Shown: positions 3,491 through 10,295, counted from the first letter of the stretch. The stretch: DNA of 64,000 bases from an uncultured Gammaproteobacteria bacterium (GCA_964645825.1 CAZXZY010000001.1:17362-81361), one strand, 5' to 3'. The notes: generated from the letters alone by a model not told the origin. A program made the numbers and translations.

Positions 3491-4453
3491 TTAGGGTATC
3501 AATTCACTCCAAAAGCAGTTAGCAATGTCATTATTACAGGTATAGCGCACTTTACGAGTAGCTTGGGTGCTACTAGCTGTTGTTTGGATATTAGAATTAC
3601 ATTCCAAATCTTCACCACAACCCTCTGGTAATGGTGTAATGATTAAACTTGCATCGTCAAAACTAAATTGAAAACCAGAATCAACCGTGTGTCTTTCCGC
3701 AAAATAAAGTTCTACTGTGTTATTTCCAGCTGATAAAAATATATCACCAGTTTTAGTAAAAGAAGCATGGGTGCCACTATTGTTAACCGCTACTATACCA
3801 TTGACCAAAACCCAAGAGTCATCATCAGACGCCAAACTATAAGCATAGTCATCATCACTTGGTGCAACGACATTTGCTCGCCAGTGTTGACCAAAATGAT
3901 AGTCATGATTATAGCCCTCTCTATTTTCCCATTCTGTGCCATCATAGGGAAACCAGTCAGTTAAATCAAAAATGACATTAGCGTCTATTTGCTCATGTGT
4001 TTTATAATCATCATCATACCAATCATGCTGTAAAGGAGTTGGTGTAGGGCCTGGATAAGGATCGACTTGCATGTCCGGGTGACTAACAGAATAATTAAAA
4101 TATTCTCCCCACCAGCCACTATCAGGCACAAATTGACACTCTAAAGGTGGATCGCAAGCTCCGCTTTCAGATTCAACAAATTCACTATTTACTACAGCAT
4201 CATTAATATTTAAACTATCAAAAATTAGATCATTTGGATCTCGTCTGAGTTGCAACAAAGCTTCTTGGACGCCTATTTCAGCATTATAAAAATTATGCAT
4301 AGACTGAGTAAAAGATCTCATGGATGCTTTATTGTTTAAAGCTATGATAGTCGTTGATAAAACTATGGACATTAGTCCAGAAGCAACAACCACGGCAGCA
4401 ATAATTGCCGCTGCACCTTTTTGAGATAAAAATAGGCTTGTTTTATTTTTCAT
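3491..4453 (-). CDS. PilX-N-like minor pilin, Asp-rich with paired cysteines
   Basis: N-terminal hydrophobic segment QKGAAAIIAAVVVASGLMSIVL followed by RSFTQSMHNFYNAEIGVQEAL, as in PilX_N-type minor pilins. Last gene of the pilus operon. Confidence 0.5.
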   Translation of the reverse strand: MKNKTSLFLSQKGAAAIIAAVVVASGLMSIVLSTTIIALNNKASMRSFTQSMHNFYNAEIGVQEALLQLRRDPNDLIFDSLNINDAVVNSEFVESESGACDPPLECQFVPDSGWWGEYFNYSVSHPDMQVDPYPGPTPTPLQHDWYDDDYKTHEQIDANVIFDLTDWFPYDGTEWENREGYNHDYHFGQHWRANVVAPSDDDYAYSLASDDDSWVLVNGIVAVNNSGTHASFTKTGDIFLSAGNNTVELYFAERHTVDSGFQFSFDDASLIITPLPEGCGEDLECNSNIQTTASSTQATRKVRYTCNNDIANCFWSELIP

Positions 4454-4459
4454 GTTTAT

Positions 4460-7351: not shown

Positions 7352-8569
7352 TTATTCAGCAAAACTTAAAGTTAATTCATACATGGGACCAATGACAGAA
7401 ATAGCAATAAGTCCAACTGCTAAGCCAACTAAAATTAATAAAACTGGCTCGATAATGCTTGAAAGATTAGACAAGACATTATCTACTCTTTCCTCATAAT
7501 AACTTGCTATTTTTTTTAGAATATCATCTAAAGTTCCGGTACTTTCTCCTATTTGACAAAGCTGCACAGTCAGCGAGGGAAACAAACTTGGTCTTTTACT
7601 CATAGTTTTAGCTAATGACATGCCTTTAGCTAATTCTACGGAAATTTCTTTAGTGGTTTTACGATAGTGAAGATTATTCAAAGTTTTAGCGACAATCTCA
7701 AATGATTTGACGATAGATAGTCCGGAAACTAGCAGTGCGTTAAGGTTGCCAGCAAATCTAGTTAGCGATAGCTCTTTAATTAGATTACCTATAAAAGGAA
7801 TTTTTAATAATAACTTATGTAAAACTAATTTTGGTTTTGGTAATTTCAAGGTTAACCAGATGATTATTAGTAACACGAAAGCTCCAATCAAAACGAAACC
7901 GCCGTAATTTTCCATGATAGATATACTTTTTTGGACAGCCTTTAACACAAATGGCAGCTCTATTCCCTCACCTTCAAAGATGCTCACTAGTTGAGGGAAT
8001 ACAAACATAGCCAAAAAAATACTAACAGTAACCAGGGCTATAAGAACTATTACTGGATACATCATTGCACTGATCACTTTGCTACGTAATTTTTTTTGCC
8101 CCTTCAAGATGCTAGCTAGGTTACCCAAAGCATCAGCTAATAAGCCTGTATTTTCACCGACTTCTACAGTGGCAATAATCATTTCCGAGAAAACATCAGT
8201 GTACTCTTTCATGCTGACCGATAATAATTGGCCGTTTTCAACTCTATTTTTAAGATGAAGAATTACTTTTTTGAGGTATTTATTTTTTGTTTCTTTAGCT
8301 AATGTTTCTAAAGCTGGCGTCAAGGCTAAACCAGCTTTTAGCATGGTTGATAGATTGTCTAAAAAAAACATTTTCCCAGTCAAACTAACTCTTCCAGTTC
8401 TAAATTTTAAAATATTTTTCTTTTTTTTCTTTGGTTTTTCAGTTGTTAAGTCTTTTTTAATATTCGGTTTTTCTTTGACAATTTTTTTCTCTACCGGTTT
8501 GGGTGGTGTTTCTGGTATTTTTTTATTATTTGTTTGATTGCTACCTAAATATTTCATATTTTTATTCAT
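7352..8569 (-). CDS. pilC: type IV pilus platform protein PilC (GspF family) with Lys-rich N-terminal extension
   Basis: Two T2SSF-like repeats (LSTMLKAGLALTPALETL, LSLTRFAGNLNALLVSGLSIVKS) and three TM segments. 8-nt overlap with pilB. Confidence 0.85.
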   Translation of the reverse strand: MNKNMKYLGSNQTNNKKIPETPPKPVEKKIVKEKPNIKKDLTTEKPKKKKKNILKFRTGRVSLTGKMFFLDNLSTMLKAGLALTPALETLAKETKNKYLKKVILHLKNRVENGQLLSVSMKEYTDVFSEMIIATVEVGENTGLLADALGNLASILKGQKKLRSKVISAMMYPVIVLIALVTVSIFLAMFVFPQLVSIFEGEGIELPFVLKAVQKSISIMENYGGFVLIGAFVLLIIIWLTLKLPKPKLVLHKLLLKIPFIGNLIKELSLTRFAGNLNALLVSGLSIVKSFEIVAKTLNNLHYRKTTKEISVELAKGMSLAKTMSKRPSLFPSLTVQLCQIGESTGTLDDILKKIASYYEERVDNVLSNLSSIIEPVLLILVGLAVGLIAISVIGPMYELTLSFAE

Positions 8570-10295
8570 GTTTGATACTTAAAACTTCAGCAATACTAGT
8601 AGTTCCCAATAGGGCTTTTTGCAAGCCGTCTTCAAAAATAGTAATCATACCGTTTTCAATTGCTGTTAATTGTAATTCGTTTGAAGAAATATTTTTGATA
8701 ATTAGCTTTTGAATAGCCGGAGAATTTTCCAAAATTTCTAGGGCACTAACACGACCAGAATAGCCAGACTGGTGACAATGTTTACAGCCTTTGCCGCGAT
8801 AAAAAGTTAGTTCATTAAAAGAATTTAAGTTATCCTCTACCCACTTCAAATCTTTGAATCGTTGTAACATTTGAGCTAAATCAAATTCCTTGCTCAAACT
8901 TTCGATTTCTTCTGGAGTCAAATGGTAGCTTTCAATGCACTTGAGGCAAATTCGACGCACTAAACGTTGGGCAATCACTACATTTAATGTAGAGGCTAAT
9001 AAAAATGGCTCTACACCCATATCTAACAGTCTTGGCGGTGCTCCAGCGGCATTATTAGTATGCAGAGTTGATAAGACTAAATGACCAGTCAAGCCGGCTC
9101 GGACAGAAATTTGCGCTGTTTTATTGTCTCTAATTTCACCGATCATAATAATATCTGGATCTTGTCTCAATAGAGCTCTTAAGCCATTAGCAAAATCATA
9201 ACCAGCTTGAGGGTTTACTTGTGTTTGGTTTATACGATGAACACCATATTCTATTGGATCTTCAATGGTGCAAATGTTAGACTCTTCTGTATTTAAAGCA
9301 TTTAAAATTGAGTATAAAGTAGTAGTTTTTCCGCTACCAGTTGGCCCAACCACTAGAATCATGCCAAAAGGTTTTTTGACTTCTCGATTCATTATTGCGA
9401 TATTCTTATCTGAAAATCCCATATTCTCTAAACTGAAATTTTGGGCATCATCTGTCATCAGACGCAACACCATTTTTTCACCATAAAAAGCAGGAATCAC
9501 TGAAACTCTGACGGACTCTTCTTGTCCTTCTAAAGAAAAAGAAAATCTTCCGTCTTGTGGTATACGATGTTCATCTATTTTTAGATTTGATAAAATTTTT
9601 ATTCTGGCTACAATAGCATCGTGTACTTCAGCTGGTAGCTCTACTTTATCATGTAAATCACCATCAATTCTAAATCTTACCACCACCGCATCTGGCAAAG
9701 CTTCAATATGTATGTCAGAGGCTTGATCAAATAGGGCATATTCTAAGATAGCGTCAACTATTTGGATGATTGGTAAGTCTAATTGGCTAGGTGTGCCTTG
9801 TACTTTTTTAAATTTTCGACTAATAATTTCATGCAGTTCTTCAGTGATGTTTTTTTGATAAAGACGGGCAGCAAAAAAGAAGTTTTTAGGGCTAGTAATA
9901 TAAGGGATTATTTCTTTTTTTATTGTCTCTTTAGCTAAAGCTAGCTTATCTTGATCCAAAGGATTAACAAAGGCCATCTTCACCTTGCCTTCTGCTAATG
10001 CGAAAGGAATTGCTTGAACCTTACGGGCCATTTTTTCATTGAACAAGTTTAGTATTTCCAAGTCCAGTTTTATTTTTCGGAGATTGACATAAGGTATTTT
10101 CAAAAAATCTCCTACTAATTCATATAGAAATTGCTCGTTAAAAAATCCCCTCTCGATCAAAACCTCTTCTATGGTTCTACGCCTGCGAGTGGCATTCTTT
10201 TTTGCGTTTTCCCAGTCAGATTCGGTGATGGTTTTCTGAGCCAAGAGTGTTTCTCTTGTCTTCTCAATAGGGATTGGTAATTTTGAAATAGGCAT
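8562..10295 (-). CDS. pilB: type IV pilus assembly ATPase PilB (GspE family)
   Basis: GSPII_E N-terminal domain, Walker A VVGPTGSGKTTTL, Asp and His boxes, tetracysteine motif CLKC...CKHC. Confidence 0.9.
   Translation of the reverse strand: MPISKLPIPIEKTRETLLAQKTITESDWENAKKNATRRRRTIEEVLIERGFFNEQFLYELVGDFLKIPYVNLRKIKLDLEILNLFNEKMARKVQAIPFALAEGKVKMAFVNPLDQDKLALAKETIKKEIIPYITSPKNFFFAARLYQKNITEELHEIISRKFKKVQGTPSQLDLPIIQIVDAILEYALFDQASDIHIEALPDAVVVRFRIDGDLHDKVELPAEVHDAIVARIKILSNLKIDEHRIPQDGRFSFSLEGQEESVRVSVIPAFYGEKMVLRLMTDDAQNFSLENMGFSDKNIAIMNREVKKPFGMILVVGPTGSGKTTTLYSILNALNTEESNICTIEDPIEYGVHRINQTQVNPQAGYDFANGLRALLRQDPDIIMIGEIRDNKTAQISVRAGLTGHLVLSTLHTNNAAGAPPRLLDMGVEPFLLASTLNVVIAQRLVRRICLKCIESYHLTPEEIESLSKEFDLAQMLQRFKDLKWVEDNLNSFNELTFYRGKGCKHCHQSGYSGRVSALEILENSPAIQKLIIKNISSNELQLTAIENGMITIFEDGLQKALLGTTSIAEVLSIKHE

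Follow-up and report, generated by a model that had tools for sequence, protein, structure and literature searches.

Motor and putative tip-complex genes of a secretin-less type 4 filament in a Patescibacteria-type bacterium

We analyzed a 64,000-nucleotide stretch of contig CAZXZY010000001.1 (17362–81361; "the window" denotes this whole stretch), which carries on its minus strand, from position 10295 down to 3491, a type 4 filament cassette of six tightly packed open reading frames (ORFs) of 577, 405, 156, 632, 174 and 320 amino acids. In reading order these encode a PilB/GspE-type assembly ATPase (8562–10295), a PilC/GspF platform protein (7352–8569), and four pilin-like proteins that we refer to as p3 (6879–7349), p4 (4981–6879), p5 (4460–4984) and p6 (3491–4453). 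The junctions down the cassette measure −8, +2, −1 (TAATG), −4 (ATGA) and +6 nucleotides. All six ORFs were found as the original prediction had placed them, that is, as consecutive minus-strand genes with overlapping or abutting boundaries.

The assignment of the first two genes was borne out by domain searches. The pilB product matched the Pfam family T2SSE at 3.1e-125 and possesses an MshEN-type N-terminal domain (1.5e-10), a Walker A motif (GPTGSGKTT at residue 317) and a tetracysteine motif (CLKC at 450, CKHC at 504); both motifs are kept in the orthologues that we extracted. The platform protein matched T2SSF in two stretches at 8.4e-52. Against the NCBIfam equivalog models, the ATPase scored 514 bits for GspE (cutoff 630) and 495 bits for PilB (cutoff 676), and the platform protein scored 265 bits for GspF (cutoff 424) and 210 bits for PilC (cutoff 700). 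Because both proteins fall under the cutoffs for the type II secretion system (T2SS), the type IVa pilus (T4aP) and the Com system alike, no single subtype is assignable to the machinery.

The N-terminus of the platform protein had been described as an unusual poly-lysine extension. A lysine-rich segment is indeed present (18 of residues 1–56, nucleotides 8402–8569), and it is a clade-wide feature of 55–75 residues that is poorly conserved and varies in both sequence and length; it is absent from the 349–350-residue PilC proteins of distant relatives. It is not an extension, however: the total length of 401–405 residues is the canonical GspF/PilC length, and the GspF profile aligns to residues 44–400 with its positions 43 to 398 covered. 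The segment thus stands in for the usual N-terminal region, and the protein keeps its canonical size of ~400 residues. Since pilC orthologues share an M(K/E)YL start equivalent to Met5 in the window protein, the true start probably lies at 8557 (MKYL), giving a protein of 401 residues; the pilB/pilC junction would then be a gap of +4 nucleotides instead of an overlap of 8.

Downstream of the machinery genes, the class III signals G|VTIIE (p3), G|FSLIE (p4) and A|FSLVE (p5) read as had been claimed for three prepilins, and they are the only three such signals in the six frames of the 64-kb window. Each of the three proteins also matched the Pfam N_methyl family (4.6e-4, 0.014 and 2.7e-5, respectively). 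The p5 signal (QQA|FSLVE, 4954 region) has Ala at position −1 in place of the near-universal Gly, a residue that permits only partial cleavage by the prepilin peptidase PilD; this substitution is confined to the window species and its closest relative (L021, 11926; L numbers denote the loci that we fetched), and the other orthologues have Gly. The fourth protein, p6, possesses an invariant Gly13 followed by ~22 hydrophobic residues, which together form a degenerate class III signal, QKG|AAAII. The Glu5 that would follow the invariant glycine is absent in all 37 of the p6 homologues.

Profile comparisons of the pilin families were used to assign subunit types. An indexed-word search for p3 homologues returned three proteins, and the p3 family was therefore built from neighboring genes in the fetched loci. 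Its members resembled ComGD (12/12), PpdA (11/12) and GspH (9/12), all at sub-threshold scores, with weak GspG matches in four of the twelve; the JGI annotation names p3 FimT. The N-terminal 165 residues of p4 gave ComGE (9/11), XpsI (5/11) and GspI (4/11), and the p5 family, which comprises 54 representatives among 1.8 billion proteins, gave ComGF (35/44) and PpdB (20/44), likewise sub-threshold. For the window proteins themselves, the NCBIfam scores were 34 for ComGD (cutoff 70), 22 for ComGE (cutoff 49) and 25 for ComGF (cutoff 80). From this pattern, the order p3-p4-p5-p6 would correspond to H-I-J-K, as in gspH-K, fimU-pilVWX and comGD-G, which for H, I and J is the best available inference from sequence. 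The K assignment of p6 is reasonably supported; the four pilin genes form one tight run (junctions −1, −4 and +6 nucleotides), the last of them encoding the protein without Glu5. The description of p3 as a plain pilin was not supported, as its best matches are minor pilins of the GspH/FimU/ComGD/PpdA type.

The protein previously noted as a giant pilin, p4, is a modular pilin, probably of the I type, that carries a seven-repeat LVIVD beta-propeller and a beta-sandwich. Pfam detected LVIVD at 7.8e-20 (the family that we take to be InterPro entry IPR013211) and Beta_propel at 2.2e-11. The protein divides into the putative I-type pilin module with the ComGE/XpsI/GspI matches (residues 1–161, nucleotides 6397–6879), a conserved WxGGxGQ segment with the first sandwich strands (residues 162–220, 6220–6396), the seven LVIVD repeats delimited by repeat alignment (residues 221–521, 5317–6219), and the C-terminal beta-sandwich seen in the structural model (residues 522–632, 4984–5316), all on the minus strand. 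The AlphaFold2 (AF2) model, at a mean predicted local distance difference test (pLDDT) score of 85.8, has a 50-residue α1 helix and a pilin beta-sheet extending to residue ~161, followed by the propeller and the sandwich. A Foldseek search with this model returned generic WD40-like propellers and phage tail proteins; among the top 50 PDB matches there was no PilY1 and nothing informative for the C-terminal sandwich, and a Pfam scan returned LVIVD and Beta_propel only, with no PilY1/PilC-type propeller family (IPR008707).

A protein from a further locus bears on the architecture of p4. In L011 (8714–11052), a 578-residue pilin-like protein with an atypical G|TTLID signal, followed by a canonical prepilin, shares the DWxGGxxQ segment and the C-terminal sandwich of p4 at 41% identity, with the two elements contiguous and without a propeller. 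This contiguity suggests that the p4 propeller is nested within the sandwich module, and the C-terminal sandwich seems to be a separate, reusable pilin module.

The second modular protein is p6, in which a PA14 lectin-type domain spans residues ~110–275 (nucleotides 3629–4126, minus strand). PA14 was matched in all 37 family members, the domain in p6 carries the Asp-Asp of the family consensus, and six cysteines of p6 are invariant. By structure prediction, p6 has a pilin fold like that of GspK and XcpX together with a large extra domain, which makes it a predicted GspK-like pilin bearing a PA14 lectin domain. An earlier label of PilX-like is sustained at the level of the predicted fold. At the level of sequence it fails: Pfam PilX_N matched 4 of 37 members at E ~0.05, and we rejected membership of p6 in that family. 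The p4 propeller and the p6 PA14 domain, the most informative features of the cassette, had been overlooked in the original prediction.

The cassette is conserved well beyond the window. The contig collection, which draws on JGI, ENA and Logan assemblies, lists the exact p4 protein of 632 residues in 25 blocks, and the p4 family comprises more than 100 clusters at 90% identity, of ~630 residues and 46–100% identical to the window protein. The p6 family forms 64 clusters (90% identity) that are 51–100% identical to the window protein, the next single match lying at 25%. Where homologues of p4 and p6 are named, the labels are Patescibacteria, Parcubacteria, Komeilibacteria and Nomurabacteria. 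A contig scan with the generic prepilin motif GFSLIELL confirmed at least 10 loci, with two true orthologues among the matches listed. All six genes are found again, at nearly the same lengths, in L008, L017, L020, L021 and L023, and L007, in which the pilins only were checked, has the same three prepilins. The flanks differ among the loci (secA, a copper ATPase, GIY-YIG/resolvase genes and others), and this recurrence of the same block between unrelated flanks indicates that it behaves as a unit.

Identity to the window proteins across the seven closer loci was 65–83% for pilB, 50–79% for pilC, 38–55% for p3, 40–77% for p4, 30–65% for p5 and 51–81% for p6 (a truncated copy in L018 being left out). 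The accessory modules of p4 and p6 are better conserved (58–70% mean identity) than the pilin folds (34–50%), a pattern that suggests conservation either of the ligand or of a contact between the modules. Three of the fetched loci carry local peculiarities. At L018 (12472–13665), the PA14 pilin is cut to a 135-residue N-terminal remnant adjoining a phage-type integrase gene, which suggests that the gene was disrupted by a mobile element. At L008 (13458–17222), the PA14 pilin gene is directly followed, on its own strand, by the gene for a 1254-residue surface-type protein with fn3, ConA-like lectin/Laminin_G_3 and GHL15 glycosyl-hydrolase-like domains. At L019 (2747–6766), a PAS protein, a PAS histidine kinase and three single-domain response regulators precede the cassette, a possible sign that a two-component system controls the pilus there; no similar genes lie near the window cassette.

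We next consider the parts that are absent near the cassette. The window ORFs were read or, if unfamiliar, scanned with Pfam, and the called genes were inspected for 10 kb beyond each end, ~84 kb in total; this span holds no secretin, no Peptidase_A24 (PilD), no PilT or second T2SSE ATPase, no PilM/N/O/P and no GspC/L/M. For the window itself, an absence of PilD, PilT, PilM/N/O/P/Q and secretin had been predicted, and none was encountered among its ORFs. Upstream of 10295, where a secretin would have spoken for a diderm locus, a 73-residue lipoprotein-like ORF and secA are found instead. A monoderm or candidate phyla radiation (CPR)-type pilus, as first proposed, is in keeping with this lack of outer-membrane components and with the Patescibacteria-type labels of the p4 and p6 homologues; assignment of the cassette to an ultrasmall Patescibacteria/CPR bacterium, as a type 4 filament locus, is supported. 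Secretin-less type IV pili (T4P) are a known CPR condition (PMC7143001). Cultivated Saccharibacteria have their T4P genes at four separate loci, with PilD, PilT and PilM/N/O encoded in other loci (PMC11623550), and the local absence of these proteins therefore says little about the genome. The description of a compact pilus operon does not apply in the sense of a complete system, the cassette being without a major pilin and without a prepilin peptidase.

From these observations a model for the cassette can be proposed, to which we assign a probability of about 0.62: the six genes would encode the motor and the tip or priming complex of a secretin-less type 4 filament. PilB and PilC would drive assembly of the filament. 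The proteins p3–p6, cleaved by a PilD encoded elsewhere, would assemble on PilC as a staggered complex capped by the Glu5-less K subunit p6; this complex would nucleate the PilB-powered polymerization of a major pilin, also encoded elsewhere, and would end at the filament tip. There it would display the p4 propeller and sandwich together with the p6 PA14 lectin, which would bind a conserved glycan, probably of the host cell envelope. The p4 and p6 modules would in this way take the role of PilY1 in diderms, or of the modular pilins PilB and PilC in Streptococcus sanguinis. In characterized systems, the HIJK genes lie in one operon and a K subunit without Glu5 caps the complex (PMC9934059), and modular pilins present adhesive modules at the tip (PMC8179133).

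Several points weigh against this proposal. Complex formation, tip location and glycan binding by p3–p6 are drawn by analogy with HIJK sets, the S. sanguinis PilABC proteins and PilX2 of the saccharibacterium TM7x, and the p4 and p6 folds are predictions, the p6 model reaching a pLDDT of only 75. All H, I and J profile matches lie under the curated family cutoffs and rest largely on the N-terminal helix, each family also weakly matching other pilin classes; when the p3, p5 and p4 N-module profiles were compared with PDB sequences, they matched the α1 helix only and left H, I and J inseparable. The partners that the filament needs, a major pilin and PilD, are assumed and not seen: neither these nor PilT and PilM/N/O occur in the window, in its 10-kb flanks or within 10 kb of close orthologous cassettes. 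Finally, host-specific adhesins usually diversify rapidly, and the high conservation of the accessory modules runs counter to this.

The foremost alternative concerns the major pilin. In this unlikely reading, the six genes with a shared prepilin peptidase would suffice for a minimal filament, with p3 as its main subunit or as part of a short tip-only stub; a short pseudopilus, built without a separate major pilin, an alignment complex or a retraction ATPase, would push both lectin-type modules across the envelope. The close orthologous loci are consistent with it, in that they encode three prepilins only and no fourth within 10 kb, and the block is kept in this form in seven related genomes with differing neighborhoods. 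The p3 gene directly follows the platform gene, the position of comGC in comG operons, four of twelve p3-family members have weak GspG matches, and p3 has the highest Gly/Ala/Ser/Thr (GAST) content of the six proteins (32%). More distant relatives argue otherwise. The loci L009 (Dojkabacteria), L019 and L022 (Gottesmanbacteria) keep an E-F-H-I(propeller)-J-K core, in which the K-like protein is short and without PA14, and each adds a separate prepilin of 151–160 residues with a canonical FTLIELLVVI-type N-terminus, from which that of p3 differs. The best match of this extra prepilin is GspG in L019 and L022 (5e-9 and 6e-10, over ~95 profile positions) and PilA in L009 (2e-6). Since a p3 homologue coexists there with a separate G- or PilA-type prepilin, p3 is not the major subunit in those genomes; the same probably holds for the window clade, whose major pilin probably lies at another site in the genome. 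The strongest and most regular matches of p3, moreover, are H-type minor pilins, and the scattering of saccharibacterial T4P genes means that a local absence proves little.

A more radical version, which we regard as quite improbable, is a complete machine made of the ATPase, the platform and HIJK-type subunits only, that is, a tip-only stub with a conserved two-lectin head. If true, an entire Patescibacteria clade would use this stub as its main organelle for attaching to hosts, and the conservation of its modules would reflect recognition of an invariant host envelope glycan.

Still less probable is a DNA-uptake role, in which a Com-type pilus encoded by a comGA-GB-(GC)-GD-GE-GF-GG-like operon would catch extracellular DNA for auxotrophic cells. 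The top NCBIfam matches of p3, the p4 N-module and p5 are ComGD, ComGE and ComGF, the ATPase-platform-pilins order is that of comG operons, and DNA uptake has been proposed for CPR pili (PMC7143001). Every ComG match is nonetheless well under its cutoff, including that of ComGA (263 bits versus 300, over residues 182–447 only), and the ATPase is a full-length, 577-residue protein of the PilB/GspE type with MshEN, not of the short ComGA type. Neither a ComGC-like major pilin nor a ComEA/ComEC-like gene was encountered in the window; PA14 and propeller modules also fit glycan binding better than DNA binding. A secretion piston of the T2SS kind, in which a GspE-F-H-I-J-K core would export folded proteins across the envelope, can be all but set aside: GspE and GspF score slightly above the PilB and PilC models (514 versus 495 and 265 versus 210 bits), the gene order is the E-F-(G)-H-I-J-K of gsp operons and the p6 fold matches GspK and XcpX, but those two scores are under their curated cutoffs, GspC, D, L and M were not found in the 64-kb window, a piston has no obvious role without an outer membrane in CPR bacteria that lack secretins (PMC7143001), and two pseudopilins with lectin-type modules are foreign to a T2SS.

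The favored reading, a motor with a tip or priming complex, places the cassette next to several described systems. With the HIJK sets (GspH-I-J-K, FimU-PilV-PilW-PilX and ComGD-E-F-G) it shares four consecutive pilin genes that follow the same order by profile resemblance and a bulky last subunit without Glu5 whose predicted fold is that of GspK/XcpX; as in gsp operons, the pilin genes lie directly downstream of the E (ATPase) and F (platform) genes. It differs from these sets in that its sequence matches are all sub-threshold, in the ~470-residue propeller and sandwich addition to the putative I subunit p4, and in having no adjacent major (G-type) subunit. GspK itself has an alpha-helical insertion where p6 has PA14.

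Both p4, with N_methyl and LVIVD, and p6, with a degenerate signal and PA14, meet the definition of modular type 4 pilins, and the combination of each domain with a pilin module is already on record. An InterPro-based survey of such pilins (Raynaud et al. 2021) lists pilin-IPR013211 and pilin-PA14 (IPR011658) proteins, many of them from CPR bacteria (PMC8179133, Dataset S1). The S. sanguinis pilins PilB, with a vWA module, and PilC, with a lectin module, which act with PilA, similarly consist of an N-terminal pilin module and a grafted adhesive or lectin module predicted to be tip-exposed. The modules there are vWA and a ConA-like lectin, versus an LVIVD propeller and PA14 in the cassette, and the three-member PilABC set contrasts with a four-member HIJK-like set that is known from sequence and predicted structure.

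A further parallel comes from Saccharibacteria. In TM7x, the propeller-bearing minor pilin PilX2 is needed for efficient host binding (PMC11623550). The TM7x pili T4P-2, with PilX2, and T4P-1, with PilX1, are like the proposed filament in being secretin-less Patescibacteria T4P with large minor pilins that bear a heptabladed beta-propeller or a lectin-like jelly roll, and their genes are likewise spread over several loci (PMC11623550). PilX2, however, has an RCC1-type propeller and no predicted PilD signal, whereas p4 combines an LVIVD-type propeller with the canonical signal G|FSLIE. Genes for PilM/N/O, PilD and PilT are part of the TM7x machinery loci as well but are missing from the cassette.

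A further comparison is with the PilY1/PilC tip adhesin of diderm T4aP, in which a beta-propeller sits at the pilus tip atop a minor-pilin complex, the place that we propose for p4. PA14 followed by a PilY1 propeller is the third commonest PilY1 architecture, found in 76 proteins (PMC8179133, Dataset S1), and it pairs the same module types as p6 and p4. PilY1 differs in not being a pilin; p4 is itself a prepilin, and in the cassette the two modules are fused to two different pilins, so that the propeller and PA14 combination of diderm PilY1 would recur split over the K and I pilins.

In the literature that we searched, this six-gene cassette is not described. Modular pilins with LVIVD or PA14 (from the 2021 catalogue) and host binding by a propeller-bearing minor pilin in Saccharibacteria are already known, and the cassette fits this known kind; the general picture of CPR pili is unchanged, and a specialist would not be surprised. 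Patescibacteria are thought to live attached to host cells. To our knowledge, type IV pili are the one structure experimentally shown to mediate this attachment, and only in Saccharibacteria. The cassette supplies a concrete, widely conserved candidate for a pilus host-recognition head in another, uncultivated branch with Komeilibacteria/Parcubacteria-type labels, and glycan-array testing of the p4 and p6 modules could offer a route to host prediction for organisms that cannot be cultivated.

A spacer of 108 nucleotides precedes pilB and holds two elements on the minus strand. The first is a terminator-like hairpin (10347–10378) with a 13-bp stem between A and U runs, for which the folding energy was −14.7 kcal/mol (z −3.66) and none of 200 shuffled sequences folded as well; it sits 3′ of the lipoprotein-like ORF and secA and 5′ of pilB, and is likely a transcription-unit boundary ahead of pilB. 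The second is an extended −10-like promoter element, TGTTATAAT (10323–10331), tentatively recognized by eye ~28 nucleotides 5′ of the pilB ATG. A two-hexamer promoter scan missed this element because it has no good −35; the scan was in itself uninformative, with 29 sites versus 32 in shuffled sequence. The hairpin and TGTTATAAT together make a transcription unit starting at pilB plausible. At the other end, between the p6 gene and pyrD, no terminator comparable to 10347–10378 was found.

The 73-residue lipoprotein-like ORF between secA and pilB (10404–10625, minus strand) has a weak lipobox match, under the Pfam cut-off, and six further cysteines in its mature part; a longer form of the ORF overlaps the 3′ end of secA. 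It is kept in same-species contigs. We rejected it as a member of the cassette, as the relative L021 (77% identity) lacks it and has a NUDIX gene at that position.

Elsewhere in the window (1–64000), almost every long ORF, and every one judged to be a real gene, lies on the minus strand; a few long plus-strand ORFs lie within minus-strand genes, and the only plus-strand gene found is tRNA-Gln (29177–29250). The GC skew is negative in all 2-kb bins but the first. The skew and the strand bias together make the window appear to lie on a single replichore with an extreme gene-strand bias.

The minus-strand genes at 20683–22380, 22387–23916 and 32050–34512 include two ATPases of the TrwB/VirD4 type, which were rejected as pilus genes since they belong to the coupling-protein family of type IV secretion systems (T4SS). 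One, of 565 residues, has a treble-clef zinc finger and follows a 509-residue protein without a family match; in the other, of 820 residues, the ATPase domain starts near residue 395, and the long N-terminal stretch ahead of it belongs to no known family. In Saccharibacteria, a predicted T4SS whose role is unknown has been reported to be essential. Two actin-like genes (45680–46693 and 50335–51387) were considered as PilM and rejected, as both are MreB paralogues (443 and 470 bits). The window also has mreC, mreD and a gene of the PBP2 type, and together these genes imply a rod-shape machinery in this small genome.

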